From Candidatus Micrarchaeia archaeon (lineage in GTDB: Archaea; Micrarchaeota; Micrarchaeia; CABMEP01): DNA of 64,000 nucleotides. The notes under the pieces were generated by a model. That model worked only from the letters and a program-made list of their open reading frames with translations. It made no database searches and was not told where the DNA came from. Made by a program: the position numbers and the translations under genes. Below are positions 3,440 through 64,000 of the stretch, piece by piece. The stretch's first letter is position 1; every line of letters starts with the position of its first letter. Where the stretch lies: NCBI GenBank assembly GCA_038886535.1, contig JAVZXS010000003.1, positions 15,080-79,079 on the forward strand, in the 5' to 3' direction.

Positions 3440-4744
3440 CTAAATTTTCTTTACAGGCTCGATTCTTTCCTTTCCAAAATAAGGAACAACTGCCTTTGGA
3501 ATGATTATAGAACCATCTCTATCCTGGTGGTTTTCCATTATTGCAACTATCGCCCTTGGTGTTGCAATTGCAGTACTATTTAGAGTGTGAACATATTCTT
3601 TTCCTTCAGCTCCAACCTTTCCATATCTAATATTCAATCTTATGGCTTGGTAAGATGTGCAGTTGCTGCATGAGATCATTTCTCTGTAGGTATTCTGTGC
3701 AGGCATCCATGCCTCAAGATCATATTTCTTTGCAGCTACAATTCCAATCTCACCAGTACATATGTTGACTATTCTGTAAGGAACCTCAATCTTTTGGAAT
3801 ATCTCTTCAGCATTTCTTATTAACTCTTCATGAATATTCCAAGAATCCTCAGGTTTGCAAAAGACAAACTGTTCTATCTTGTTGAATTGATGCACTCTAA
3901 ATATTCCTTTCGTGTCTTTTCCATGCGCCCCAGCTTCTTTTCTAAAACATGCACTAATTCCAACATACTTAAGCGGCAACCTTTCTTCTTCAATTATTTC
4001 ATTCATATGCATTGCCGCTATTGGATGTTCAGAAGTAGAAATTAGATAGAGGTCTTCTCCTTCTATCTTGTAAAGAGCTTCCTCGAAAGTGCCAAGGTCA
4101 GTTACGCCTTCATAAGGCTTTCTCTTAAGCATGAAAGGCGGATAAATAGGAGTGAAGCCTTTCTTGACCATAAGGTCCATTACCATTCTTTGTAATGCCA
4201 TATCTAAGAGCACAAGGTCATTCTTTAGATAATAAAATCTGGCTCCCGAAACCTCTGCAGCTTTTTCTATATTTGCTCCGTCTATAACTGGCAATAGATC
4301 AACATGGCTTTTTAATTCAAACCCATAGTCTTCTTTTGTTTTTGGCTTGCCCCATGTTCTTACAACCTGATTATCATTTTCATCTTTTCCAAAAGGAACA
4401 GACTCATGCAATATATTTGGAAGGCGCATCAAATAAAATCGTACCTTTTCTTGCAGCTCTTCCATTTTTGCTTCTGCTTGCTTTATTTTTTCAGGAATTT
4501 CAGATGCTTTTTTCTTATATTCTTCAGCTTTTGCTTTATCTCCTTTTTTCATTGCGTCTGCGATCTGTCTTGTTACTTGGTTTCTTTCAGATCTAAGTTT
4601 TTCAACCTCTGCAAGTAATTCCCTATATTGTTTATCTTTTTCTATCAGATCTTCAAGCCACTGGATCTTTTCTAGATCTTGTCTTTTTTCAAGATCTGCT
4701 CTTACAATTTCAGGATTCTTTCTTATAAGTTTGATATCTAGCAT
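3440..4744 (-). CDS. serS: seryl-tRNA synthetase
   Basis: N-terminal coiled-coil arm (MLDIKLIRKNPE...), class II motif 2 (FRKEAGAHGKDTKGIFRVHQF) and motif 3 (LNSTAIATPRAIVAIMENHQ). The ATG at 4744 is preferred over the GTG at 4753. Confidence 0.9.
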   Translation of the reverse strand: MLDIKLIRKNPEIVRADLEKRQDLEKIQWLEDLIEKDKQYRELLAEVEKLRSERNQVTRQIADAMKKGDKAKAEEYKKKASEIPEKIKQAEAKMEELQEKVRFYLMRLPNILHESVPFGKDENDNQVVRTWGKPKTKEDYGFELKSHVDLLPVIDGANIEKAAEVSGARFYYLKNDLVLLDMALQRMVMDLMVKKGFTPIYPPFMLKRKPYEGVTDLGTFEEALYKIEGEDLYLISTSEHPIAAMHMNEIIEEERLPLKYVGISACFRKEAGAHGKDTKGIFRVHQFNKIEQFVFCKPEDSWNIHEELIRNAEEIFQKIEVPYRIVNICTGEIGIVAAKKYDLEAWMPAQNTYREMISCSNCTSYQAIRLNIRYGKVGAEGKEYVHTLNSTAIATPRAIVAIMENHQDRDGSIIIPKAVVPYFGKERIEPVKKI

Positions 4745-27199: not shown

Positions 27200-27321
27200 G
27201 CGGAGATCGCATAACCTGGTAGTGCGCAAGCCTGGAAACATTTCATCAGGCAATATAATTGTATTTGCCAGGAAGCTTGTGGTCCGAAAGGGCCTTGTGG
27301 GTTCAAATCCCACTCTCCGCG
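27200..27321 (+). tRNA. tRNA-Ser(GGA), class II, with a 36-nt intron at canonical position 37/38 (27238-27273)
   Basis: Acceptor GCGGAGA/TCTCCGC with discriminator G. D stem GCAT/GTGC. Anticodon stem CAAGC/GCTTG with loop CTGGAA|A. Long variable arm GGTCCGAAAGGGCC. T arm GTGGG-TTCAAAT-CCCAC. Intron CCAGG pairs with exon CCTGG. Confidence 0.85.
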
Positions 27322-31862: not shown

Positions 31863-31971
31863 GGGGCTGTCTGCTAGCCTGGTTAGGCTTCCACCTTGGG
31901 GTGGTGGCGACCCGAGTTCAAGAACTTCAGGTTGAAAATGCCTGATGGTTGAACAAATCTCGGCGGCCCCA
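31863..31971 (+). tRNA. tRNA-Pro(GGG) with an intron of about 35 nt inside the T-loop (about 31922-31956)
   Basis: Acceptor GGGGCTG/CGGCCCC with discriminator A. Anticodon stem CCACC/GGTGG with loop TTGGGGT. T stem CCGAG (31912-16) and CTCGG (31959-63) are separated by 42 nt starting TTCAA and ending AAAT. Intron TTGAAC pairs with exon GTTCAA. Confidence 0.8.
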
Positions 31972-32022: not shown

Positions 32023-32700
32023 ATGGTTGAAAATGAAAATCTTCAAGAAAAATATCTTGAAGCTGGCGTTCACATCGGAACCAGAGTGTCCAGCAAATGG
32101 ATGAAGAAATTTGTATACAAATTTAGAAAAGATAAGCTTGTGATGCTTAATGTTGAGATGATAGACAGCAGGATAAAGAATATGGCTAAGCTTCTTAGCA
32201 AGTATGATATGTCTAAGGTAGCTGTAGTAGCATCTCGTGTTTATGCAGTTCCGGCTGCGAAAAAATTTGCAGAAATATTTGGTGCGAAATCATTTTTAGG
32301 AAGATTTATTCCAGGTACATTTACAAATCCTTCAAATGAAAATTTCTTTGAACCACAAGTAATATTTGTTTGTGATCCAAGAGTAGAAAAACAGGCTCTT
32401 ATAGAAGGAACATTTACTGGCGCATTGAATGTAGGATTGGCAGATACAGATAATTCAATAAAGAATCTTGACTACTTTATTCCTTGTAATAACAAAGGAA
32501 AGAAATCAGTCCCATTTGTTTTCTATCTTCTTTCAAAAGAACTTATGAAGGCAAAGGGAATGATTAAGGACGATTCAGAATTCAAATACAAGCCAGAGGA
32601 CTTTGAGCTTACCTCCTTCACAGCAGAAGAAAAGAAGGAAGTAGAAGAGTCTGAAAAAGAGGCCAAAAAAATAGAAGCAAAAGAAGAAGTAGAAGAGTAA
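32023..32700 (+). CDS. rps2: 30S ribosomal protein S2 (uS2) with an acidic C-terminal tail
   Basis: LEAGVHIGT, VFVCDPRVEKQALIE and IPCNNKGKKS. Confidence 0.9.
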   Translation: MVENENLQEKYLEAGVHIGTRVSSKWMKKFVYKFRKDKLVMLNVEMIDSRIKNMAKLLSKYDMSKVAVVASRVYAVPAAKKFAEIFGAKSFLGRFIPGTFTNPSNENFFEPQVIFVCDPRVEKQALIEGTFTGALNVGLADTDNSIKNLDYFIPCNNKGKKSVPFVFYLLSKELMKAKGMIKDDSEFKYKPEDFELTSFTAEEKKEVEESEKEAKKIEAKEEVEE

Positions 32701-32776
32701 GTATTCTTTTGTTTTCTTTATTCTCTTCTTTTCGTCTCTTTTATTCTCTTCTTATTCTCTTCCTTTTATAATTCAT

Positions 32777-34048
32777 TTATCCTTTCATGCATTCATTCCT
32801 TAAAGAATTATCAATTATATATACACAGTAGTCTGTTGCCAGCTGCTCTCTTTTTATTGCCATGTAGATGCATTGATCTTTGTAATACCCATCATTCATT
32901 TTTATACAGTTATCAAATGAAACTTTACTTCCAGCTATAACTTGTAGATAACAATCAGAAACATCTTTTCTTGTTAAGCTTGATGTATTTAGTAGGATTT
33001 CACATTCAGATGGCATTGCGTTTGCTTTTGCCACATTTTGAACGCATACTTTTTTCAGCATTATTGTTTTTATTCTGTCACACCCATTCACATCTTTGCT
33101 TGTCATTGCATAATCCCAATAGCATGAATCTCTTTTTTGTTCTGTAGATATCTCTTTGCAGAAACTCATGTCTTCAGCTCTTACGACACATCTCTGATAG
33201 CAGTCATCTTTGTAATTTATTCCAGATATAACGTTACACCAAGAACATGAAGAAGTGTAAACAGAATAATATTGATAACAGTAATCTTTTATTTGGATAT
33301 TCTCTATTGTTCCACATTGGACATTCTTAGAAATTATACTTTCACATGCTGTCTTTATGCCAAGATTTGATATCATTTCACATTTATTTTCTGAAAGACT
33401 AATGGAATAGTTTAGATAACATTCATCTTTTTGAAGTTGTGTGGTCATTTTTTCACATAAAGAAGCATTTTTCTTTGCTATTGCATTACATATATTAAGC
33501 ATGTAACTGTCATTTAATTTCTTGCATTCTTCTACATAGTCTCTTAAAAGGCAATCATTCCTTAAAGTGGAATTTTGTATCATATTGCATGCAGAATCCC
33601 CAAATTTAACTGCTGCATTTCTAAAGCATAAGTCTCTTTCGCTCCCATTCAATTTATTACAATAGCTATAATTGTATTCGGAAAGCTTTGAGATGCACTC
33701 AACATAATATTTCTGATCAAACTCTTCTTTTAAGAGAATTTCACAATCCTCTATATCATTGTTATTGTATGCTCTTTCAATTATGCATTTTTCCTTACCA
33801 ATAAGCAGATCTTCACATTTTTTCGGAATGGTTTGGTTTGTCTCGTTTCCAGGCAAAGTCTGATTCGTCTGGTTCAAATTTGTTTCATTCTTCTTTATAA
33901 TCGGCCCAATTTCAACATTCTTCTCTATGCAACCATACAGGAAAATCAGCGAAAGCAAAGCAACAAGAAGCATAAATATTCCAACTCTCACCTTTTTACC
34001 ATTTGTTTTTCTTTCCATTTTTTCCCTCTCAATTATTTTTAATATCAA
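32777..34048 (-). CDS. Cys-rich repeat surface protein with N-terminal signal anchor/lipobox-like LYGC
   Basis: Hydrophobic N-terminus VRVGIFMLLVALLSLIFLYGC, an NxT-rich linker, about 31 Cys, and repeated C-x(8-12)-[RK]D-x-C-[YFL] units. Confidence 0.6.
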   Translation of the reverse strand: MILKIIEREKMERKTNGKKVRVGIFMLLVALLSLIFLYGCIEKNVEIGPIIKKNETNLNQTNQTLPGNETNQTIPKKCEDLLIGKEKCIIERAYNNNDIEDCEILLKEEFDQKYYVECISKLSEYNYSYCNKLNGSERDLCFRNAAVKFGDSACNMIQNSTLRNDCLLRDYVEECKKLNDSYMLNICNAIAKKNASLCEKMTTQLQKDECYLNYSISLSENKCEMISNLGIKTACESIISKNVQCGTIENIQIKDYCYQYYSVYTSSCSWCNVISGINYKDDCYQRCVVRAEDMSFCKEISTEQKRDSCYWDYAMTSKDVNGCDRIKTIMLKKVCVQNVAKANAMPSECEILLNTSSLTRKDVSDCYLQVIAGSKVSFDNCIKMNDGYYKDQCIYMAIKREQLATDYCVYIIDNSLRNECMKG

Positions 34049-34064
34049 ATACTTTAATATTAAA

Positions 34065-34970
34065 TCACATTCCCTCGTAACATTCTTCCCATCCTTCTTC
34101 TTCTGCCTGCTTCTTGAATTTGATTCCTATTAATTTATATGCAAGTTGTGCACATATGATGGATGGCATCTTGAATCCATTTATTGGTGCGTGTTCAGTT
34201 ATATCCACCCCTATTATATTTCTTTTCTCTCCTATCTTCATCAATGGACTTACAACTTCATCCCAACTGAGTCCCCACGGCTCAGGCATTAATGTCGCAG
34301 GCATTAAGGAAGGGTCAAATGCATCTACATCTATACTTATGTAAACATTATCTTCTATTTCTTTCAGAAAGTCATTGAGCTCCTTCTGGTTGCTTATTCT
34401 GCAGTAAGCGTTAAGCTTTTCAGCTTCCTTGATTTCTTCACTTCCTATGCTTCTTGTTCCCAATAAGCTTACATTTATTTTATTTTCAACAAGCCTCTTT
34501 GTAACAGAAAGATTAGAGTTTTTATTTCCTTCAAATTCATCTTTCATATCTGTATGGGCATCAATGATTAGAACGCTGAACTCCTCATCTTTTTTCTTCA
34601 TCTCTTCACTCGCAGCTTTTACTGTAGCTATAGAAATAGCTTGATCTCCCCCAAGTACTACTGGAAACTTTCCATCCTGGATTATCTTTTTAGTGTTCAA
34701 ATATATAGAATTCAATCCAGCATCTCCTAAATAGATTCTTTCAGGAAGAGGATAAATTCTTGCTGCGCAGGGAGAGTAATTCAGTTGAAGGTCATAATCT
34801 TCCATGTTCCAGTTTTCAAGGATCTCCGAAGGTCCAAGAAGTGTTTGTTCAGAAATAGATGTTGAAGCGAAAGGTGCAGGAAATATTACTGCTCTTGCTT
34901 CTTCATAAGTGACATCCAGTCCCATGAAGTTTACTTTAGGCAATATTGATTTTTCCTTCCTATCTGCCAT
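34065..34970 (-). CDS. speB: agmatinase/arginase-family ureohydrolase
   Basis: IIDAHTDM, ISIDVDAFDP and GVDITEHAP metal-binding motifs; adjacent to deoxyhypusine synthase. Confidence 0.8.
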   Translation of the reverse strand: MADRKEKSILPKVNFMGLDVTYEEARAVIFPAPFASTSISEQTLLGPSEILENWNMEDYDLQLNYSPCAARIYPLPERIYLGDAGLNSIYLNTKKIIQDGKFPVVLGGDQAISIATVKAASEEMKKKDEEFSVLIIDAHTDMKDEFEGNKNSNLSVTKRLVENKINVSLLGTRSIGSEEIKEAEKLNAYCRISNQKELNDFLKEIEDNVYISIDVDAFDPSLMPATLMPEPWGLSWDEVVSPLMKIGEKRNIIGVDITEHAPINGFKMPSIICAQLAYKLIGIKFKKQAEEEGWEECYEGM

Positions 34971-35039
34971 AATCTAGTTTATAAGCTTTAGTTTAAAAAG
35001 TTTAGTTTTTATGTCTTTCGTATTATGTTATGCGCTTTT

Positions 35040-36059
35040 TTATTTTCTGAATGCCCCAGCTACAAGCAATGGAAATGCAATTGTTGCATCGCAGAATACC
35101 TTAACACTTTTTGTACCTGGTTTTATTTTTCCCCAAGACACGGCCTCATCAGGTCTTGCACCACTGTCTGACCCACCCTCTTCAATTTCTGTATTTATAT
35201 AAATAGTATAATCAGCTCCGTTTCTATATAAATTTGCATTCATTATATGATGTTTTATTATCCCACCACCTAGAACGATTACACCTGTTTTCTTTGCATC
35301 TAAAACCATGTTAACAAGTTTATTCATGTCTGCAGCTATGTCAATTCTGAAGTCAGCATTTTTCTTATCACTTTCTCTAAAGAAGTAGACCATATCTCCT
35401 ATAGATCCATCTGTTAATGCTGGGCAGAATGTTGGGATATTATTTCTTGAAGCCCAGTAATAAATTGATTTTTCATCCTGAACTTTAAGTCCTAATTTAT
35501 GAATAAATTCAGAAGGAGTATGAATACGTCCTGTGCTTCTTTGTTCATCAAGCAGCTCTTTCAAGAATGGATGCATCATCTTTTCAAATTCAATGTATCT
35601 ATTATTTGGGACAAAAACATTTCCTATTCTATTAATTCCTTTTTTCCTTAATTCAGCACCGTCAGCTCTAAAATCCCCAACATAAAAATTGCCAAACGTT
35701 TTCAAAATGTCTTCTTCCACTCCACCTGTGGTTGTAACCAAAGCCTTAACCATTTTATGCTTTACAAGATATCTTATGACATCCCTTATACCGGAACTTA
35801 CCATATTTGAATTATAGGCTAAAAAAATGTCTGCATTCTCTCTTCTCATTTCTTTAGCTATTTCTATGGCCTTGCCAAGGTGAGATGCTTGCATTCCTAT
35901 ATTGTAATATGAATTTATCAATTCACTTACTTCATCATTGATTTCAAATTTATCAAAATCATAACCCTTAATAATAGGCAAATCATTAGGTTCTTCTGAT
36001 TCTTTGTAATTTGCATCGTGCGCCTTTTTTATCTTATCTTTTGAAACCATTTTCTTCAC
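35040..36059 (-). CDS. dys: deoxyhypusine synthase
   Basis: NMVSSGIRDVIRYLVKHKMVKALVTTTGGVEEDI, GGGIIKHHIMNAN and EAVSWGKI. Confidence 0.9.
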   Translation of the reverse strand: MKKMVSKDKIKKAHDANYKESEEPNDLPIIKGYDFDKFEINDEVSELINSYYNIGMQASHLGKAIEIAKEMRRENADIFLAYNSNMVSSGIRDVIRYLVKHKMVKALVTTTGGVEEDILKTFGNFYVGDFRADGAELRKKGINRIGNVFVPNNRYIEFEKMMHPFLKELLDEQRSTGRIHTPSEFIHKLGLKVQDEKSIYYWASRNNIPTFCPALTDGSIGDMVYFFRESDKKNADFRIDIAADMNKLVNMVLDAKKTGVIVLGGGIIKHHIMNANLYRNGADYTIYINTEIEEGGSDSGARPDEAVSWGKIKPGTKSVKVFCDATIAFPLLVAGAFRK

Positions 36060-36114
36060 CTAACTTTATTAAATCACATGTAAGAATATTAAATCTTGCT
36101 GTTCTAATATATTT

Positions 36115-36579
36115 ATGGAAATTCCAGAATCAAAACTTATAAAATCAGAAATTATTCTGCGAGATATGGATTTGAATGATGAAGTAAAAATGACAAGAAA
36201 ATCTTTAGTAAGATGGTTAGCTTTATCTTTAGGAATAATATCAAAAAATGAGTCAAGACAGTCAGTTTTAAATGTTCTTGAGGCGCTTCTTTATTATCAT
36301 CTTAAAGAGAAGAAAGAACCGAACTATCAAGATCTAGTTGAATATTTTTCAAAGAATAACATTCAAATGAATGAAAAAACAATAAGATATCACTTAACAC
36401 AGCTTAGAAAGATGGGAATACTTGAAGACAATCGAGGCACATATCGTTTTTCAGGATTTCAATATGATGATCTTTCTTCAGCTCTAGAAACAACATATCA
36501 AAAAAGAGCATATATGGCATTCTTTAACATAAAGCAATCGTTAAATATCCTTCAAAAAATGTACGAAGAACAGAAATAA
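36115..36579 (+). CDS. winged-helix DNA-binding protein (putative transcription regulator)
   Basis: EKTIRYHLTQLRKMGILEDNRGTYRF, a wHTH recognition helix plus wing. Confidence 0.55.
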   Translation: MEIPESKLIKSEIILRDMDLNDEVKMTRKSLVRWLALSLGIISKNESRQSVLNVLEALLYYHLKEKKEPNYQDLVEYFSKNNIQMNEKTIRYHLTQLRKMGILEDNRGTYRFSGFQYDDLSSALETTYQKRAYMAFFNIKQSLNILQKMYEEQK

Positions 36580-36666
36580 TTGTATTTAATTATTTGCTTG
36601 ATTTAGTCATTGTATTTTTACTCTCTTGATCTTTCAGATAAATTAAACTGCTTAGTAGGTGATAAA

Positions 36667-37263
36667 ATGTTAATTGTAGATCTTGAAACTACTGGCGTCA
36701 ATCCTAAAAAAAATTCAATAATCAGCATAGGAGCAATAGATTTTCTTCATCCTGAAAGGACATTTTATGAAGAATGTAGGCCATGGAACGGAGCAGAAAT
36801 AGATGATGATGCTTTAGCTATTAATGGTTTTACTAAGGATCAGATTCTTGATGAAAACAGAAAAACTCTTTATGAGGCAATGAACAACTTTCTTAAATGG
36901 ATTAGCGAATCAGAAAATCAAACACTCGGTGGTCATAACTTTGGATTTGATTGGGCTTTCTTAAAAGAAACAGCTGAAATTTACAATCTTTCCTGGAAGC
37001 CGCATAGAAGAATTGTAGATCTTCATTCAGTATGCTACACCCATTATCTTAAGAGAGGCATTATTCCTCCGCTTAAAGACAACAGAACTGATCTGAGTTT
37101 CAACAAGGTTCTTAACTATGTTGGCCTTCCTGACGAGCCAATTCCGCACAATGCATTATTCGGTGCAAAGGCAGCTGCTGAGGCATTCTCACGTCTTCTC
37201 TATGGGAAGTCTCTTCTTGATGAATTTCATAAATATCCAATTCCAGATTACCTTAAAATTTAG
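36667..37263 (+). CDS. DnaQ/RNase T-like 3'-5' exonuclease (DEDDh fold), paralogue 1
   Basis: Exo I IVDLETTG, Exo II GHNFGFDWAFL, Exo III PHNALFGAKAAAEAF. The ATG at 36667 lies 4 nt after AGGTGAT. Confidence 0.75.
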   Translation: MLIVDLETTGVNPKKNSIISIGAIDFLHPERTFYEECRPWNGAEIDDDALAINGFTKDQILDENRKTLYEAMNNFLKWISESENQTLGGHNFGFDWAFLKETAEIYNLSWKPHRRIVDLHSVCYTHYLKRGIIPPLKDNRTDLSFNKVLNYVGLPDEPIPHNALFGAKAAAEAFSRLLYGKSLLDEFHKYPIPDYLKI

Positions 37264-37370
37264 TAAATTTATAATATTCTACTATCATCTTGATTAAAGG
37301 ATTCAAATTATATCGGGAGATATCGGAAGTAAACAAATAGGTAATAATATAGGTAAGAAGCACAATATAT

Positions 37371-37418
37371 CTTACATTTTTGCAAACTATAATTTTCAAA
37401 AATGTTGAAAATTTGCAA
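37371..37418 (+). repeat. 48-nt direct repeat, copy 1 (contains nested inverted repeats)
   Basis: CTTACATTTTTGCAAACTATAATTTTCAAAAATGTTGAAAATTTGCAA. It is identical to 38803-38850 except A37391/G38823. Confidence 0.9.
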
Positions 37419-37462
37419 ATTAAAATCAAAGAATTTATATATTTAACTATTAATAACATTTT

Positions 37463-38707
37463 ATGTTGAAAGATACGATATTAGCACTAAACCCACATTG
37501 GGAAGAGAATTTCTTTTATAGCTATCCATTGAAGCGTAAAGTTTTTACGAAAATTCTTAATTCTCTTTCTCATCCTCTAATGCCTACTTTGATAGGTCCA
37601 AGAAGAGTTGGAAAAACAGTTTTAATGAAACAGACAATAAACCATCTTATCTCTGAAGGATATTTGAGAAAGAATATTCTTTTCTTTAGTTTCGATGAGG
37701 AGGTAAAAGAACCATTAGAAATAATTAATGCATGGGAAGAGATGATCGCAAAGAAAGTAAGAGGATCAAATTTCTTTGTCTTTTTCGATGAAATTCAAAA
37801 ACTTGAAAACTGGGCATCAAAAATAAAACTACTTTATGACAATTTAGGAATAAAAATTTTCTTAAGCGGCTCTGCATCATTAGAAGTAAGAAAAGGATCA
37901 GAAAGTCTGGCTGGTAGGACAGTAGACATATTTGTAAATCCGATCTCGTTCGATGAATATCTTCTTCTTTCAGGAAAGAAGCATTCAGAAATAGATGAAG
38001 AAGAGTGGAAAAGTTACGTTATGTACATGCATAAACAACTACCAGAACTTGCTCTTTATCCATCAATTGACAGCAAAGAATACATCACAAGTATCGTGAA
38101 AAAAGTAATTTTTGAGGATGTCAAAAAATATTACAGAATAGAAGAATCAGAAACAATTGAAGGAATATTCAAATTTATATGTAGAGATCCAGGACAAATT
38201 ATTATAATATCCGATCTTGCTAAGGATTTCGGAATAAGCAGAATAACTGCATCTAACTATCTTCATGCATTAGAAAAGAGTTTTCTATTAAGAAAGCTAT
38301 ACAATTTCTCAAAGAATGCGAGAAAGATAGAGGTAAAGGCAAAGAAATACTATCCATTTTATACATCACTTGCAGATTATGTTGAATTAACAGACTTTTC
38401 GAAGCTTGCAGAAATCGAGGTAGCTTGGAAAACCCAAGCAGATTTCTTTTGGAATGACAGAGGAAAAGAGATTGATTTTATAAAATTAAAAGATAAAGAT
38501 TTAACAGCAATTGAGGTAAAAACAAGAAATATGATCGATAAGAAAGACATCAAATGGCTTGTAGAAAATAGAATAGGTGCAAAAAGAAGAATCGTGATTA
38601 CTGGCTTTGACTCTAAATACAACCTTGCTAAAGAAGATAAAGAAGAGATTAAAGACATAGAGTTTTTAAGACTTCATAAATTAGAATCAACATTTCAATC
38701 AGATTAA
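37463..38707 (+). CDS. AAA+ ATPase with a C-terminal PD-(D/E)xK-like module (COG1373 / DUF4143-type)
   Basis: Walker A GPRRVGKT, Walker B FVFFDEIQ, and C-terminal EIDF...IEVK (D...ExK). Confidence 0.7.
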   Translation: MLKDTILALNPHWEENFFYSYPLKRKVFTKILNSLSHPLMPTLIGPRRVGKTVLMKQTINHLISEGYLRKNILFFSFDEEVKEPLEIINAWEEMIAKKVRGSNFFVFFDEIQKLENWASKIKLLYDNLGIKIFLSGSASLEVRKGSESLAGRTVDIFVNPISFDEYLLLSGKKHSEIDEEEWKSYVMYMHKQLPELALYPSIDSKEYITSIVKKVIFEDVKKYYRIEESETIEGIFKFICRDPGQIIIISDLAKDFGISRITASNYLHALEKSFLLRKLYNFSKNARKIEVKAKKYYPFYTSLADYVELTDFSKLAEIEVAWKTQADFFWNDRGKEIDFIKLKDKDLTAIEVKTRNMIDKKDIKWLVENRIGAKRRIVITGFDSKYNLAKEDKEEIKDIEFLRLHKLESTFQSD

Positions 38708-38802
38708 AAACTTCAATCATCTTAAAGCAATTCAAATACCTTAATAAATTATTGATAAATTATTGAATCACTATTGAATCAGTTTAAAAGAAGCGTTTAA
38801 AA

Positions 38803-38850
38803 CTTACATTTTTGCAAACTATGATTTTCAAAAATGTTGAAAATTTGCAA
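38803..38850 (+). repeat. 48-nt direct repeat, copy 2
   Basis: 47/48 identity to 37371-37418; offset 1432 bp. Confidence 0.9.
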
Positions 38851-39121
38851 TATGGGATCCTATTCATCTAATATAACTAAGCGGTAGTTTTAAGAGAAAA
38901 ATCATAGAGTATGTAGCTATCATAATAGTTATGGAAATAAAAAGTATGAACATTATAAAATCCTAAAGTTAAATTAAAATCTCCAAAATCGTATCTAAAA
39001 TCCTTTATTCATTTAGGGATTCCTCCAAGTAAAAAATCCTATTTTTTCTTTACAGGATTTCTACAAAGCTATACAAAACAATATTTTTATATTACAACAC
39101 TGTTTTTTCTAAGGTGATAAT

Positions 39122-39724
39122 CTGATAGTAATAGATGTAGAAACAACAGGTCTCGATCCTAAGAAAAATTCTATAATTAGTATAGGCGTAGTTGATTTCT
39201 CTAATCCTAAGAGGCAATTTTATCGAGAATGCAGGCCATGGGAAGGAGCAATCATAGATGAAGCTGCATTGAATGTAAATGGATTTAAAAAAGATTCTTT
39301 GTTTAATCCAAATAAACCTTCACTTAAAGAAGCGATAAGCGAGTTTTTTTCATGGTTTCTTAAGTCTGAAAATCAAACTCTTGCAGGACATAACTTTGGT
39401 TCATTCGATTCAAAATTTATTCAAGCAGCTATTGAAATATATGATTTAAGTTTCAGGATACAAAGTAGATCTGTAGATCTCCATTATATTTGCTATGCAG
39501 ATCATTTAAGAAAAGGAATTCCTCTTCCTTTAAACAAAAATAGAACGAACATAAATTCTGATTATGCCTTCAAGTATGTTGGACTTCCAGAAGAGCCGCA
39601 CCCCCATATTGCAATCACAGGAGCAAAATTTATAGCTGAATCATTCTCAAGATTGATATATGGAAAGATTTTATTAGATGAATTTAGAAAATATAAAATT
39701 CCATCCCATCTAAAACAAAAATAA
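39122..39724 (+). CDS. DnaQ/RNase T-like exonuclease, paralogue 2, lacking a canonical start codon (CTG replaces the ATG); possible pseudogene or non-canonical start
   Basis: The frame is open from 39113 and encodes LIVIDVETTG (Exo I) upstream of the first ATG (39269). AGGTGATAATCTG aligns with AGGTGATAAAATG of paralogue 1. Exo II GHNFGSFDSKF; Exo III PHIAITGAKFIAESF. Confidence 0.55.
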   Translation: MIVIDVETTGLDPKKNSIISIGVVDFSNPKRQFYRECRPWEGAIIDEAALNVNGFKKDSLFNPNKPSLKEAISEFFSWFLKSENQTLAGHNFGSFDSKFIQAAIEIYDLSFRIQSRSVDLHYICYADHLRKGIPLPLNKNRTNINSDYAFKYVGLPEEPHPHIAITGAKFIAESFSRLIYGKILLDEFRKYKIPSHLKQK

Positions 39725-39814
39725 TCATAGGAAATCATGTTTAATAAGTATTAAATAGATGTTTTTCTATTTTTTAATATTGCACTTATTAGTTTAATTC
39801 TGGATTGTGGAAAT

Positions 39815-42568
39815 ATGTCACATTTGATAATTAAAAAATTCGGTTCTCTTACAGAAATACAGAAGCAAGCAATTCCTTTAGTGCAACAAGGAAAGAACGT
39901 TTTAATAATAGCTCCAACCGGATCTGGAAAAACAGAGACTGCAGCTGTACCAATAATGGAAAAGATAAAAGAAGCTAATCTTAAAGGGATTGCAGCTATC
40001 TATATCACTCCTCTTCGTGCTTTAAATAGAGATATGCTTAAAAGACTGACAGAATGGGCAAAAGAAATAGGAATAACTATTGCAGTAAGGCATGGAGATA
40101 CAGGAACTTCTGAAAGATCCTTACAGGCTAGATCACCTCCACAGTTTCTTATTACAACCCCTGAAACCCTTCAAGCTATTCTACCTGCAAAGAAAATAGG
40201 TGAGCATCTTAGAAATGTAAAATATGTAATTGTAGATGAACTTCATGAGCTTGCAGATAGCAAAAGAGGAGCTCAGCTTTCAATAGGTCTAGAAAGATTA
40301 GCAGAGAAAGCAGGTGAATTTCAAAGGATTGGAATAAGTGCTACAGTTTCAGATCCAATAAAGTTGTCTCAATTTTTGTGCGGATTCCGTTCATGTGAAA
40401 TAGTTGATTTAAAATATCTAAAGTCAATGAAATTTGAGATTTCTTACCCTCAACCAGTAATTCAGCATGAAAAAGAAGCAAACGAGCTTCAGATTGATTC
40501 AGCTGCCGTTGCAAGATTAAAGGAAATTCAAAAAATTATACAGCATCAACGCACTCTTATATTTGTAAATACTCGCTCAATTGCTGAGATTCTCGGTTCT
40601 AGGTTGATGAAGTTAGATCCAAAGATAGCAGTTCACCACGGTTCTCTATCAAAAGAAGTAAGAATTCAATTAGAGGATGATTTCAAAAACGGGAAACTTC
40701 ATGCTCTTGTTGCTACTTCTTCATTGGAGCTTGGAATAGATATAGGAGATATTTCACACGTAATTCAATATATGTCACCTAGACAGGTTTCAAGACTTGT
40801 TCAGAGGGTAGGAAGAAGCGGACATACTATAAAAGGAACTTCAAGAGGAACAATTATATGTGCAGATCCAGATGATGTATTTGAGGCCCATGCACTACTA
40901 AAATTAATAGAAGAAGGTCAGTTAGAAGAACAGCAGATCTGCGAAAATGCATTAGATGTTCTTGCACATCAGATTGCAGGCATATTGATTGAAAGAGATA
41001 AGGAAGTAAGTACAGAGGAGGTTTATAGCATAATAAAGAGAGCCTATCCATATTCAACACTTCATCCAGAGAAGTTTTTATCTGTAATTAATTTTATGGA
41101 AGACAAAAGACTTTTGAAAAAGAACGGAAACATGCTACAGAGAATGTCTTCTACACGTTTATACTACTATGAGCATCTCTCTACAATTCCATCTGTTGAA
41201 AAATTCCTTGTAAAGGATGCAGCAACAAACAAGATAATATCCACTCTTGATGAGGATTTTGTTTCTTTCTTTGAAACAAACGAGCTTTTCATAACTAAAG
41301 GGGTTCCATGGAGGATATTGGACATTGATAATGAGAGGAGAATTGTAGTGGTGGAGGCAGCAGATGATATAAGCGCAGCTATTCCAGATTGGGAAGGTGA
41401 AGAGATACCAACAAGCTATGAAGTTGCACAGACAGTTGGAAAATTAAGAACCAGCGTCAAGGAGCTTCTAAAGGAATCAGAAGATATAAATAAAGCAGCA
41501 AAAGAAACAGGAATAGAAGTAGAAGCTATAAAGGATTTAATTGATTCACCAGAATTTAGAGAAGTGATGCCAACAAATAAAAACATTCTTATAGAATGTT
41601 GGAATGATGTTGCTGTAATACATGTCTTAGGAGGCCTTAATGCAAACAGAACATTAGCTGCAGTGCTTGCAGAGAGATTATCAAAAGAATATGGTTCGTC
41701 AATAAAAACGCTTGTGGATGCGTATAGAATAGCATTGGTTCTTCCAAGGAAGGCAGAGTCAAATGTAGTAAAGGATCAGCTTTTAGCCATAGCCAGATCG
41801 GATATAAAATCAGATTTGGAATCCCATCTTTCTAAGCATAAGCTTTTTAGATTCAAATTCATCCACATAGGTAAGATGTTTAATTTGTTCCGTGAAACCC
41901 CCAGGATTTCAGATCGTTTCATCCAGGCCTTTGTAGGAACACCAGTTTATGAAGAGACACTTAGGGATGTTTATTCTTCTTATTATGATCTGAAGAATGC
42001 ACAAAAAATACTTGATGGAATTGCAAAGAAAGAGATTTCTGTCCACTCAGTGCAGGTGAAGAAACTCTCTCCAGTTGCAACACGTGCACTTATAAGGAAT
42101 CATGGGTCAGAGCTTATTGCATCAATAGAGCCAACATCAGAGATAATAAAGGCATTTAAAGCTAAGTTGCTTGGCAAGTCAGTTGTTTTATATTGCATGC
42201 ATTGCGGAAAGGATTGGATTTCATTTATTGGAACATTGCAGGAAAAGGTAAAATGCCCAAAGTGCGGAAGCAGTGTTGTTACAATAGTGCCTAATTTCGT
42301 CTCTGTAGAGGATATTAGAAAACTATTAAAGAAAAAGAGGCTTAATTCAGAGGAAAAAAGCTGGAGAGAAAAACTTGAAAGATCAGCCGCCATAATAAGT
42401 GCCTCAGGAAGGAATGGTGTGATTACACTTTCTACATATGGAATAGGCCCAACTAAGGCATCCTTCATTCTTAGCAGGCCATATAAGACTGAAGATGAGT
42501 TTTATGCAGCCCTCCTTGAAGCACAGAAGACATTTATAAGAACAAAGAGATTCTGGGAGTTTCATTAA
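39815..42568 (+). CDS. lhr: Lhr-type SF2 DExH helicase (archaeal Lhr2-like) with a C-terminal Cys4 zinc ribbon
   Basis: FGSLTEIQKQAIP, APTGSGKT, VIVDELHEL, GISATV, VATSSLELGIDIG, QRVGRSGH and CMHCG...CPKCG. Confidence 0.7.
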   Translation: MSHLIIKKFGSLTEIQKQAIPLVQQGKNVLIIAPTGSGKTETAAVPIMEKIKEANLKGIAAIYITPLRALNRDMLKRLTEWAKEIGITIAVRHGDTGTSERSLQARSPPQFLITTPETLQAILPAKKIGEHLRNVKYVIVDELHELADSKRGAQLSIGLERLAEKAGEFQRIGISATVSDPIKLSQFLCGFRSCEIVDLKYLKSMKFEISYPQPVIQHEKEANELQIDSAAVARLKEIQKIIQHQRTLIFVNTRSIAEILGSRLMKLDPKIAVHHGSLSKEVRIQLEDDFKNGKLHALVATSSLELGIDIGDISHVIQYMSPRQVSRLVQRVGRSGHTIKGTSRGTIICADPDDVFEAHALLKLIEEGQLEEQQICENALDVLAHQIAGILIERDKEVSTEEVYSIIKRAYPYSTLHPEKFLSVINFMEDKRLLKKNGNMLQRMSSTRLYYYEHLSTIPSVEKFLVKDAATNKIISTLDEDFVSFFETNELFITKGVPWRILDIDNERRIVVVEAADDISAAIPDWEGEEIPTSYEVAQTVGKLRTSVKELLKESEDINKAAKETGIEVEAIKDLIDSPEFREVMPTNKNILIECWNDVAVIHVLGGLNANRTLAAVLAERLSKEYGSSIKTLVDAYRIALVLPRKAESNVVKDQLLAIARSDIKSDLESHLSKHKLFRFKFIHIGKMFNLFRETPRISDRFIQAFVGTPVYEETLRDVYSSYYDLKNAQKILDGIAKKEISVHSVQVKKLSPVATRALIRNHGSELIASIEPTSEIIKAFKAKLLGKSVVLYCMHCGKDWISFIGTLQEKVKCPKCGSSVVTIVPNFVSVEDIRKLLKKKRLNSEEKSWREKLERSAAIISASGRNGVITLSTYGIGPTKASFILSRPYKTEDEFYAALLEAQKTFIRTKRFWEFH

Positions 42569-50326: not shown

Positions 50327-50417
50327 GTGCTTCTTTCTCATGCTAATTTTAAAAAACTTCTGAATTGCAAATTTTTACTTCTTTAAAATATGTACTTCTA
50401 ACAAAAATAGATAAAAA

Positions 50418-50433
50418 GGAAACATTTATATAT
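50418..50433 (+). promoter_or_regulatory. BRE/TATA-type promoter for a leaderless transcript
   Basis: GGAAACATTTATATAT; the TATA element ends 22 nt before the ATG at 50454, and there is no SD. Confidence 0.5.
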
Positions 50434-50453
50434 GGGTTTAATGTCTAATAATT

Positions 50454-51509
50454 ATGACAAATTATAAACTTCCAAACAATAGAATAAAAATTATAGACCC
50501 AGACAAGACAGAACATCACCTAAATTTAAAACGTATACTTTCCGATGAGAATTATAAAACCGATAAAATCAAAAGAATACTGAAAAGAGCAGCGGTTGCT
50601 ACTGCAATAGGGATGTCTCTTCTTTTAGTTTCCAAATCTTTAAAAGCTGAAGAAGTTTCAACTAATTTAGTTTCTGTCGACCAAGTATCTGTCTCCTCAG
50701 AATCTACCAGTAACTTTGATAGGAATTCAAGCAATCCATTAAACTCTACAGTAAATAAAATAGTGGATAAAAGCAAAGAGATTATGAATAACGCAATGAA
50801 TGTCCTATCTAAAAAAGAAACAACCACCCAAATACAGAAAGATGCACTGGATTGTAAATTAGGCGATAATTCAAAGAAATATGCTATGAATGAAATTTCC
50901 AAGTGTCTTTCATCAGAAAAAAAAGACGATGTAACTAATGCGATTACGGAATTGTTAAACAAAGACATTGTTCTTAGCAAAGAAGTAAGAAACAAGATTA
51001 CTAACTTGGTTTTACATGCAGACGAATTCGATTACAGTAGGATTATGGAAGTTATAAAGATGCATAAGATAGTCGAAGCAGTTCCATCTATAATAAAAAG
51101 ATTGGAATCTGTTTCAAACGGCTCCGATCCAATGTTTAATGATTCAATTCCCGCACTTGGAGTATTCGCAGTTAAGGGGGATTGGAATGCGATTAATACT
51201 CTCATGTCAATTCTCAAGAATAATCCAGACGAAGATGTTAAGTCTTTGGCCGCAGCTTGTTTAATACATGTAGACAAGAATGTAATGCCAGAAATTATTC
51301 AGTTTTACAATTCCATAAGCGAAGAAAAAAGAATTGATCTTATAAGAGAAATGCAGATATTTCGTGCATTTGACATCGAAATGAATGGCATTATTTATAA
51401 CAAAAATGCCGTATTTTCTAGAATAGAACAACTTTTAAAATTCGAAGAAAGCAGAATTGTGGGCGAAGAGTTAAAAACTGCAAAACCTTTAATCTTTGAA
51501 AATTTCTGA
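50454..51509 (+). CDS. membrane-anchored protein with a HEAT/PBS-lyase-like repeat region
   Basis: TM AAVATAIGMSLLLV and C-terminal repeats (VPSIIKRLE..., NTLMSILKNNPDEDVKSLAAACL). Confidence 0.5.
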   Translation: MTNYKLPNNRIKIIDPDKTEHHLNLKRILSDENYKTDKIKRILKRAAVATAIGMSLLLVSKSLKAEEVSTNLVSVDQVSVSSESTSNFDRNSSNPLNSTVNKIVDKSKEIMNNAMNVLSKKETTTQIQKDALDCKLGDNSKKYAMNEISKCLSSEKKDDVTNAITELLNKDIVLSKEVRNKITNLVLHADEFDYSRIMEVIKMHKIVEAVPSIIKRLESVSNGSDPMFNDSIPALGVFAVKGDWNAINTLMSILKNNPDEDVKSLAAACLIHVDKNVMPEIIQFYNSISEEKRIDLIREMQIFRAFDIEMNGIIYNKNAVFSRIEQLLKFEESRIVGEELKTAKPLIFENF

Positions 51510-63483: not shown

Positions 63484-63537
63484 CATCATTGTTTGATTTT
63501 TATCTATTTTTATCATTCTAAGTCAAATAGATCAAAA

Positions 63538-63553
63538 CGAAACATTTATATAC
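63538..63553 (+). promoter_or_regulatory. BRE/TATA-type promoter for a leaderless transcript
   Basis: CGAAACATTTATATAC. The 13-mer GAAACATTTATAT and the 22-nt spacing to the ATG (63574) are the same as at 50418. Confidence 0.5.
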
Positions 63554-63573
63554 TTCTTTTTTGTTAATAATTT

Positions 63574-64000
63574 ATGGCAGAATTCAAATTTGAATGGGAT
63601 CCTGAAGATAAGAATGAAAAAAAATTTAGAGAGCAATTTAATTTAAGGGAAGGAAGAGAGTACCTTCCAATGGAAAAAAATAATTATCCATTGATGCCTA
63701 GTAGTAAAGAAAAAATAGAATCGAGCTTTAAAGAGTATCTGAATATGGATTATTCATATGAACTAGTTCAAGAAGTTCTTGAAGAGATACACCAGACTAA
63801 AAAATGTACACTAGAACAAGCTGATACACTTAATACAAATTTCGCAAAACTTCTTGTAGGCATTTATCAACTTAATAAAAGAAATCTACATTGTTACTAC
63901 TTTAAAAAACTTAAGAATAGTGATTATGAAGTGTTAAATAGATCGCTGTTATCCCTAATAAATTCGAATTTAACATTTGATGATATATGTAATGATGCAG
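63574..64000 (+). CDS. hypothetical protein, 3'-truncated by the window end
   Basis: ATG at 63574 (MAEFKFEWDPEDK...); I translated it to position 64000 without meeting a stop. Confidence 0.5.
   Translation, partial: MAEFKFEWDPEDKNEKKFREQFNLREGREYLPMEKNNYPLMPSSKEKIESSFKEYLNMDYSYELVQEVLEEIHQTKKCTLEQADTLNTNFAKLLVGIYQLNKRNLHCYYFKKLKNSDYEVLNRSLLSLINSNLTFDDICNDA

Follow-up and report, generated by a model that had tools for sequence, protein, structure and literature searches.

The closest described relatives of the gene studied here are proteins of the PDC-S01 type, in which an ATPase is fused to a PD-(D/E)XK domain (PMC3424549; PMC12988326). PDC-S01 is a very abundant, unvalidated candidate defense gene that came out of "guilt-by-embedding" (bioRxiv 10.1101/2024.01.29.577857; PMC12988326; PMC13356809). 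As AAA_14-DUF4143, it is reported to be the fourth commonest "defense system" call in prokaryotes; Archaea account for about 10,000 instances, and its mechanism, ligand, and target are not known (PMC12988326). In the searchable literature on PDC-S01, COG1373, and DUF4143, flanking direct repeats or mobility are nowhere mentioned. We analyzed a member of this family in a 64,000-nucleotide (nt) stretch of DNA (the whole of which is called the window) from a metagenome-assembled genome (MAG) of a Micrarchaeota (DPANN) archaeon, where the gene stands between two nearly identical 48-nt direct repeats, DR1 and DR2. The window protein has the same domain architecture as PDC-S01/COG1373 and gives strong matches to the family hidden Markov models (HMMs), and its gene, too, stands "embedded" among others, the arrangement by which guilt-by-embedding is defined (bioRxiv 10.1101/2024.01.29.577857). 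What sets it apart is the flanking repeats, which are confined to one sub-clade with at least 51% identity to the window protein. These repeats form the conserved boundaries of a small one-gene cassette gained by horizontal transfer, and they probably serve as binding sites for the cassette's own ORC/STAND-like winged-helix nuclease.

The ATPase-nuclease gene (37463-38707, plus strand) is the sole open reading frame (ORF) between the two repeats and encodes 414 amino acids comprising an AAA_14 P-loop domain, a winged helix, and a DUF4143 PD-(D/E)XK domain. It is called as PDC-S01 by PADLOC (HMM PDLC04787, E=1e-51, 174 bits), and the Pfam domains AAA_14 (PF13173) and DUF4143 (PF13635) match with E=7e-29 and E=7e-19, respectively. 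The P-loop ATPase motifs GPRRVGKT and FFDEIQ (Walker A/B) are invariant; so are E336 and D338 of the nuclease motif, while E351-V-K353 (E351-x-K353) is conserved in at least 90% of sequences. An AlphaFold (AF2) model made with 40 homologs reached a mean confidence score (pLDDT) of 92.4, and its C-terminal domain follows the alpha-beta-beta-beta-alpha-beta order of PD-(D/E)XK nucleases. Together, the conserved E336/D338 and E351-x-K353 and this topology are consistent with the published classification of DUF4143 (PMC3424549). In Foldseek comparisons, the N-terminal two thirds of the model matched Apaf-1/NLR STAND proteins, ORC/Cdc6 (2qby, 7jpq), RuvB, RFC, and DnaA, and this part is confidently predicted to resemble an AAA+ domain with a winged helix. 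A sequence search of the PDB with the ATPase gave no match, and no relative of it was found in the IMG/VR viral contigs.

DR1 (37371-37418) and DR2 (38803-38850), both on the plus strand, are copies of the 48-mer CTTACATTTTTGCAAACTAT(A/G)ATTTTCAAAAATGTTGAAAATTTGCAA that are 47/48 identical and 1432 nt apart, exactly as an earlier sequence-only reading of this DNA had reported, and they occur nowhere else in the window. Allowing up to 3 mismatches, the 48-mer has exactly 2 matches in 64 kb versus 0 in 100 dinucleotide-preserving shuffles; it is the window's sole long direct repeat of high identity, every other one being at most 82% identical. All the nested inverted repeats that had been named are present in each copy (ACATTTTTG/CAAAAATGT, ATTTTCAA/TTGAAAAT, and TTTGCAAA), and the sequence boxes of the 48-mer can be written as ACATTTTTGCAAA and CAAAAATGTTGAAAATTTG. 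DR1, with its boxes ACAttTTTGCAAA and CAAAAATGTTGAAAATTTG and its dyad symmetry, matches the repeat profile with E=5e-15. The reported spacings held as well: 44 nt separate the end of DR1 from the ATPase ATG at 37463, and 271 nt (given as about 270) separate the end of DR2 from the N terminus of the exonuclease gene exo2 at about 39122. The similarity that was said to extend upstream of both copies is marginal, for AAGAAGC is indeed present at each (37355-37361 and 38788-38794) and lies 9 nt from one repeat and 8 nt from the other, so that a 1-nt shift is needed to align them. One contig of an NCBI MAG (GCA_038885315.1, JAWAAD010000003.1) and two independent Logan assemblies carry the same sequence byte for byte, so the repeats are no assembly artifact.

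Relatives were found by a search with the Lhr helicase, and the window was compared by blastn with the two contigs L006 and L007 (L numbers denote the compared sequences). The gene order in the window is deoxyhypusine synthase (minus strand), a 154-residue winged helix-turn-helix (wHTH) protein, exo1, DR1, ATPase, DR2, exo2, and Lhr helicase. L006, whose Lhr and wHTH proteins are 98% and 100% identical to those of the window, and L007, whose Lhr is 92% identical, both read wHTH-exo1-exo2-Lhr, with 78 and 69 nt, respectively, between the exo genes and with neither an ATPase gene nor the 48-mer. Homology of the window to these contigs ends at 37261-37262, the end of exo1, and restarts at 39078; thus, the sequence 37264-39077 (plus strand), about 1.8 kb, stands in place of about 30 nt. 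This comparison shows the segment to be an insertion in the window lineage and bears out the suggestion that the ATPase gene arrived as an inserted cassette. A single gain in that lineage is the parsimonious reading, because loss by recombination between the repeats would leave a solo repeat, and none is present.

The insertion is larger than the repeat-bounded unit. A left segment of 107 nt outside DR1 (37264-37370) and a right, ORF-free segment of 227 nt outside DR2 (38851-39077) found no relatives by blastn or tblastx among the compared sequences and no match in Rfam, which returned nothing at E<=1 over 37200-39200. Within 38958-39062, the right segment holds AAAATCCT three times, at 38958, 38998, and 39034 (spaced by 40 and 36 nt), together with an inverted copy, AGGATTT, at 39055. 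The whole insert had no blastn match among plasmid and phage records. Its GC content is 28.6% versus 33.3%, within the lowest 4% of windows; the noncoding parts account for most of this difference, which makes it weak evidence that we set aside. As a separate observation, L003, an independent assembly of the same strain (equal to window 32634-39063), stops 14 nt short of the insertion's right edge, and L005, a contig of a 98%-related MAG, begins inside exo2 (equal to window position ~39240). Contig breaks cluster at the exo1-exo2 slot, possibly because of strain heterogeneity, a pattern uninterpretable from contigs alone.

About nine independent cassette lineages were examined. The closest homologs of the ATPase among 5.8 billion proteins are 51 to 73% identical to it and come from other DPANN archaea, including Anstonellales and Aenigmarchaeota; the neighbors of these homologous cassettes are unrelated housekeeping genes, namely, carbohydrate kinase, SHMT/ThyX, CrcB/DUF190, tRNA methyltransferase, and GNAT genes. 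Nevertheless, the repeats of L019, L020, L021/L022, L023, L024/L025, L027, and L074 all align with the window 48-mer. Within-pair identity is complete in L021/L022 (50/50), L024/L025 (46/46), L027 (46/46), and L074 (48/48), and it is 43/47 in L023 and 39/45 in L019, whose contig begins inside DR1; L020, whose contig ends inside the gene, shows DR1 only. The alignment has two invariant blocks, ACA..TG.AAA and TGTTGAAAA.T, and the repeat boundaries agree within about 5 nt across lineages. A further homolog, L029 (52% identity), has repeats that match each other at 32/32 positions and are arranged in the same geometry, but their sequence is a different one. A profile of the repeat run over 371 kb (the window and all relatives) recovered the flanking copies (E<=4e-9) and reverse-strand echoes only, with no solo or scattered copy in this search. 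These comparisons show that the clade with at least 51% identity bears a homologous repeat of about 48 nt on both sides of the gene wherever it is located. The repeats are thus neither a target site nor a by-product of the exonuclease duplication, as might have been supposed from the window; they are cassette-borne and move with the ATPase into unrelated contexts. No recombinase or transposase Pfam family was found within 4 to 10 kb on either side of any cassette.

More distant homologs lack the pair. No bracketing repeats above shuffle level were detected in L028 (45% identity, three paralogs), L076 (44%), or two bacterial plasmid copies (26 to 31%), and some of these repeat-free homologs have tandem or dyad boxes upstream only, which is consistent with an ancestral operator role. 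L028 (1-9233), from Micrarchaeota, carries its three AAA_14-DUF4143 paralogs within 9 kb amid housekeeping genes, and one of them has a tandem ATATTCCAGTTGGTGGAATA (two copies) upstream; in L076 (2414-2472), two (T/G)nCAAACATGCnTAT boxes lie 33 nt apart upstream of the ATG. Upstream operator-like boxes may thus be a feature of the whole family.

The position of the repeats relative to the gene is also conserved. In the cassette loci, 28 to 44 nt separate the end of DR1 from the ATG, and between the two stands a TATA-like box, which in the window is TTTATATA (37434-37441, plus strand, read from the sequence), 15 nt past DR1 and 21 nt before the ATG; the same DR1-TATA-ATG layout is found in L023, L027, L074, L029, and L019. 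This placement of the putative promoter suggests a leaderless ATPase transcript. On the other side, DR2 starts 18 to 35 nt before the end of the stop codon in six lineages and encodes the conserved C terminus (..IDKFANY-). In the window and L019, DR2 lies 95 and 27 nt past the stop, and a spacer between stop and DR2 (38708-38802 in the window) is confined to this clade; the window DR2 can still be read as a FANYD-coding string, the ATPase C terminus in related cassettes. The repeat period varies from 1266 to 1432 nt across cassettes. Taken together, the loci show that DR1 always adjoins the TATA box and that DR2 sits at the end of the gene or overlaps it. Since DR2 supplies the last codons, a hypothetical circle with one repeat would be a complete unit of ORF, repeat, TATA box, and ATG.

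By comparing L021 with L024, we found that the two copies do not diverge independently. The two contigs are collinear over 3.7 kb with 77% nucleotide identity (flanking proteins 87% and 66% identical, ATPase 82%), and the cassette is therefore orthologous in both genomes. Within each genome the repeats are identical, and between the genomes the pairs differ at three positions, each difference being common to both copies. One of them is an A/G change in the C-terminal Asn-to-Asp codon in DR2, which is mirrored in the noncoding DR1. Differences shared in this way mean that the two copies have been homogenized, as independent evolution cannot yield the pattern. The alignment thus shows the two repeat copies to evolve in concert, and the homogenization could have occurred by gene conversion, by unequal exchange, or through a one-repeat intermediate.

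According to the above-described analysis, we favor, as probable, a one-gene cassette whose boundary repeats are sites for its own protein; the functions proposed here for the repeats and the ATPase are inferred from sequence. Each repeat would be an array of dyad or iteron-like candidate sites (ACAAATTTGCAAA ... CAAAAATGTTGAAAATTTG) for the winged-helix protein of the cassette. Binding at DR1 would autoregulate the promoter, as at an operator, and binding at both repeats would insulate or loop a potentially toxic nuclease gene, allowing it to work in any insertion context. The copies would be kept identical through gene conversion or, alternatively, through unequal exchange or excision via a one-repeat intermediate.

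Several observations weigh against this interpretation. The co-variation of the recognition helix with the repeat is anecdotal, and selection alone hardly explains perfect identity over 46 to 50 nt, which may point to a recombination mechanism. The indel in the window exceeds the DR1-to-DR2 unit by 107 plus 227 nt, leaving the repeats subterminal. L073 (52% identical) has a DR1-like remnant at its TATA box and no DR2, so the pair is not obligatory. L073 has a further peculiarity, an imperfect (~70%) direct repeat of about 105 nt that flanks its cassette (2308-2413 and 3715-3819); the downstream copy encodes the C terminus of a convergent cytidylyltransferase-like gene, and the upstream one is a pseudo-copy with a frameshift. 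The arrangement resembles a long target (or donor) duplication that accompanied the insertion.

The locus and its relatives supply the family with a candidate cognate DNA site, a conserved element of about 48 bp whose boxes are defined and which accompanies one clade of the protein. They also give a natural pair of filled and empty sites that dates an acquisition, and the concerted evolution reveals an active process that keeps the flanking copies identical. Binding, cleavage, looping, and excision are now open to direct experiments, and the question arises whether PDC-S01 genes serve immunity, are selfish elements, or combine the two.

The alternative that survives best, which we regard as possible and on present evidence doubtful, is that the repeats are chiefly recombination or mobility sites, a role compatible with the cassette and its self-bound repeats. 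Excision would proceed by exchange between the two direct repeats, or by staggered cleavage at both ends of the 48-bp stretch, made either by the cassette's own PD-(D/E)XK nuclease or by a recombinase of the host in trans. The product would be a one-repeat circle of about 1.3 to 1.4 kb where the end of the ORF leads on into the promoter of the same gene, and re-insertion would restore two identical repeats. Several observations fit: the cassette is present or absent between near-identical genomes, it is spread patchily over Micrarchaeota, Anstonellales, and Aenigmarchaeota in unrelated contexts, and its repeats are perfectly identical within a genome and diverged between genomes, with boundaries conserved to about 5 nt across lineages. 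The one-repeat circle would be complete and maximally compact, since DR2 gives the last ORF codons, and a 7-7-7 dyad (ATTTTCA-AAAATGT-TGAAAAT) may be seen to resemble a recombinase core site. Other observations speak against it. The empty sites in L006 and L007 have no repeat-like attB, no solo repeat turned up in the 371-kb profile search, the window indel ends 107 and 227 nt outside the repeats, and there is no target duplication at its outer edges, where the alignment score falls below those of shuffles. No circle junction was seen, either. Two short Logan contigs with both ends inside the repeat, L026 and L075, were considered as circles and rejected, as they run exactly 30 nt (k-1) into each copy and represent graph breaks at the repeat. 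Moreover, L021 and L024 keep the cassette at an orthologous position; therefore, long-term residence without movement does occur.

A stronger form of the same idea, which we consider unlikely, is that DR-ATPase-DR would be an autonomous one-gene mobile element, of a kind not recognized before, whose ORC/STAND-like AAA+-wHTH-PD-(D/E)XK protein would recognize and cut its own direct terminal repeats of about 48 bp; the element would move via the one-repeat circle and restore identical repeats as it inserts. If this were true, at least part of the PDC-S01 "defense candidate" family would consist of selfish elements, and the "embedding" of PDC-S01 in other operons would result from self-insertion instead of, or in addition to, immunity. 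What is new at this locus is the paired boundary repeats of a PDC-S01 clade; repeat-bounded cassettes and autoregulated defense-type genes are known as such, and there is a minority chance that the cassette represents a new, self-mobilizing kind.

Far less credible is a repeat that acts as a folded strand, be it an RNA or single-stranded DNA hairpin, a terminator or insulator RNA, an attC-like site, or a subterminal hairpin like those of IS200/IS605. The plus-strand RNA folds modestly better than shuffles (z about -2.2), and the dyad is conserved, with 86% and 82% of alignment cells pairing versus 31 to 53% and 12 to 69% on a slid register. Against this, the covariation of helix A is not significant (96/500 shuffles reach its score), helix B is without double-sided changes, and the two central pairs are broken in half of the lineages. 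The stems, made of A/T pairs only, are weak (-9 to -10 kcal/mol), Rfam gives no match, and no Y1/HUH transposase or integron integrase lies nearby. Probably, then, the repeat is not a folded-strand element.

Least probable of all is the proposal of the sequence-only reading that the repeat is a shared operator or promoter module co-regulating the ATPase and exo2-lhr and bound by the adjacent wHTH protein (36115-36579): DR1 does adjoin the ATPase TATA box, in L019 a TATA-like box and a GNAT gene come after the downstream repeat, and TAATATAA lies 17 nt past DR2 in the window, but the comparative data have largely refuted such co-regulation. The wHTH-exo-Lhr arrangement occurs without the repeat in L006, L007, L009, L011, and L012, and no wHTH, exo, or Lhr homolog lies beside any other repeat-bearing cassette, which leaves the 154-residue wHTH protein, conserved next to Lhr where there is no repeat, without support as the binder. 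From 39078 onward, exo2-lhr retains its own ancestral, TATA-containing upstream region, with TTTTTATATTACAAC, as in the repeat-free relatives, and the repeat would accordingly not be required for expression of these genes. In L021, L024, and L027, DR2 lies over the stop codon or between convergent genes and cannot be a promoter element there.

The neighboring genes have features of their own. The left neighbor, exo1 (36667-37263, plus strand; Pfam RNase_T), encodes a DEDDh exonuclease with orthologs in L006 to L009, and the right neighbor, exo2 (39122-39724, plus strand), encodes its DEDDh paralog; the supposed paralogy holds, with proteins 55.6% identical. There is no canonical start codon for exo2, as no ATG, GTG, or TTG occurs between the in-frame TAA (39110) and the catalytic Asp (window 39110-39133), and the seven codons before this Asp are GGT GAT AAT CTG ATA GTA ATA. 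The same absence is seen in the insertion-free L006 (9300-9325); in L007 (2357-2440), the exo2 frame stays open as far upstream as a TTG that lies two codons past the exo1 stop. The 200-codon exo2 ORF is 89% conserved between genomes. These features suggest that exo2 uses a noncanonical start (ATA or CTG) or is coupled to exo1. The order wHTH-(DEDDh exonuclease)-Lhr (window 36115-42568; L006 to L014) is kept across Micrarchaeota, and the exonuclease duplication is restricted to the clade of the window, L006, and L007. L009 has a single exo gene, and L008 carries about 5 kb of unrelated genes (response-regulator, TrmB, HD, histidine-phosphatase) in the same slot before Lhr; the slot between exo1 and Lhr is thus a variable insertion point in Micrarchaeota.

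Two observations elsewhere in the window may be recorded. Rfam finds a tRNA of 122 nt at 27200-27321 (44.7 bits), apparently an intron-containing archaeal one, which fits the archaeal origin of the window; ARAGORN called only the tRNA-Pro at 31868-31938. Furthermore, a 76-nt direct repeat, 71% identical, occurs at 50396-50471 and 63516-63591, 13 kb apart, with a shared promoter-like core, GAAACATTTATATA.

Finally, we compared the repeat-bounded cassette with known repeats and mobile elements. A miniature inverted-repeat transposable element (MITE) or other generic repeat was rejected, as there are 2 copies in 64 kb and no extra one in 371 kb by profile; wide scattering of the 48-mer, which would have marked it as such a repeat, was not seen in the window, the relatives, or the contig scans. 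An exact scan of genome contigs for its 24-mer core gave 0 matches, and the single match among metagenome contigs (L004, a GC-rich bacterial contig sharing only the core) is due to chance. Because the 24-mer matches only the variant present in the window (already in L023 the last base is another), these scans say little about the wider repeat family. Among viral contigs, a 17-mer core gave 42 single matches with 30% identity outside the core, likewise chance. A transposon or insertion sequence with target-site duplication does not fit direct ends with no duplicated target, and the repeats are homologous across unrelated sites and therefore no target-site duplication. IS200/IS605 was rejected for want of a Y1 HUH TnpA and of significant hairpin covariation, and an Xer/dif element (IMEX) was rejected because the empty site has no related sequence and the repeat has 48 nt versus the 28-bp dif.

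Three systems come closer. Integron attC sites are about 55 to 140 nt long, with an R''-L''-spacer-L'-R' layout and a GTTRRRY core, and their cassettes carry diverse cargo in arrays (CALINs and reported archaeal integrons). The repeat-bounded ATPase cassette is similarly a gene-sized unit between imperfectly palindromic sites in the same orientation, with a 3' site that overlaps the ORF end, no recombinase inside, and a conceivable one-site circle. In contrast, its repeats of 46 to 50 nt are shorter than attC and have, instead of the R''-L''...L'-R' layout, a single 8-nt dyad with a 5-nt spacer; their GTTGAAA only partly fits GTTRRRY, failing at the last position; and the cassette has its own putative promoter and a site tied to one gene family, with no array. 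We therefore rejected identity with attC or CALINs by length, layout, the single ATPase cargo family, and the lack of IntI within 10 kb on either side.

Archaeal att-flanked elements of the SSV and pNOB8 types integrate into gene or tRNA 3' ends. They resemble the repeat-bounded ATPase cassette in their direct repeats of about 45 to 50 bp and in a repeated segment that rebuilds the 3' end of a gene. The ATPase cassette, however, has no integrase, measures about 1.3 kb, and repeats the 3' end of its own cargo gene. An attL/attR integrative element was rejected, as there is no element integrase and the empty sites in L006 and L007 have no attB copy; since these sites lack the repeat, there is no attB/attP pair.

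The archaeal Orc1/Cdc6 origins with their origin recognition boxes (ORBs) share with our locus an ORC/Cdc6-like AAA+ winged-helix protein and a gene flanked by dyad-containing, AT-rich repeats. The window protein differs in belonging to Pfam AAA_14 rather than Cdc6 and in its extra PD-(D/E)XK nuclease, and the window repeats run in the same direction instead of facing each other across an AT-rich unwinding element and belong to an accessory insertion, absent from close relatives, rather than to a conserved origin. On these three grounds (AAA_14, direct repeats, and a locus missing in close relatives), we rejected an identity with an Orc1/Cdc6-ORB origin; the likeness to ORC nonetheless suggests, by analogy, that the ATPase-nuclease recognizes its own flanks.

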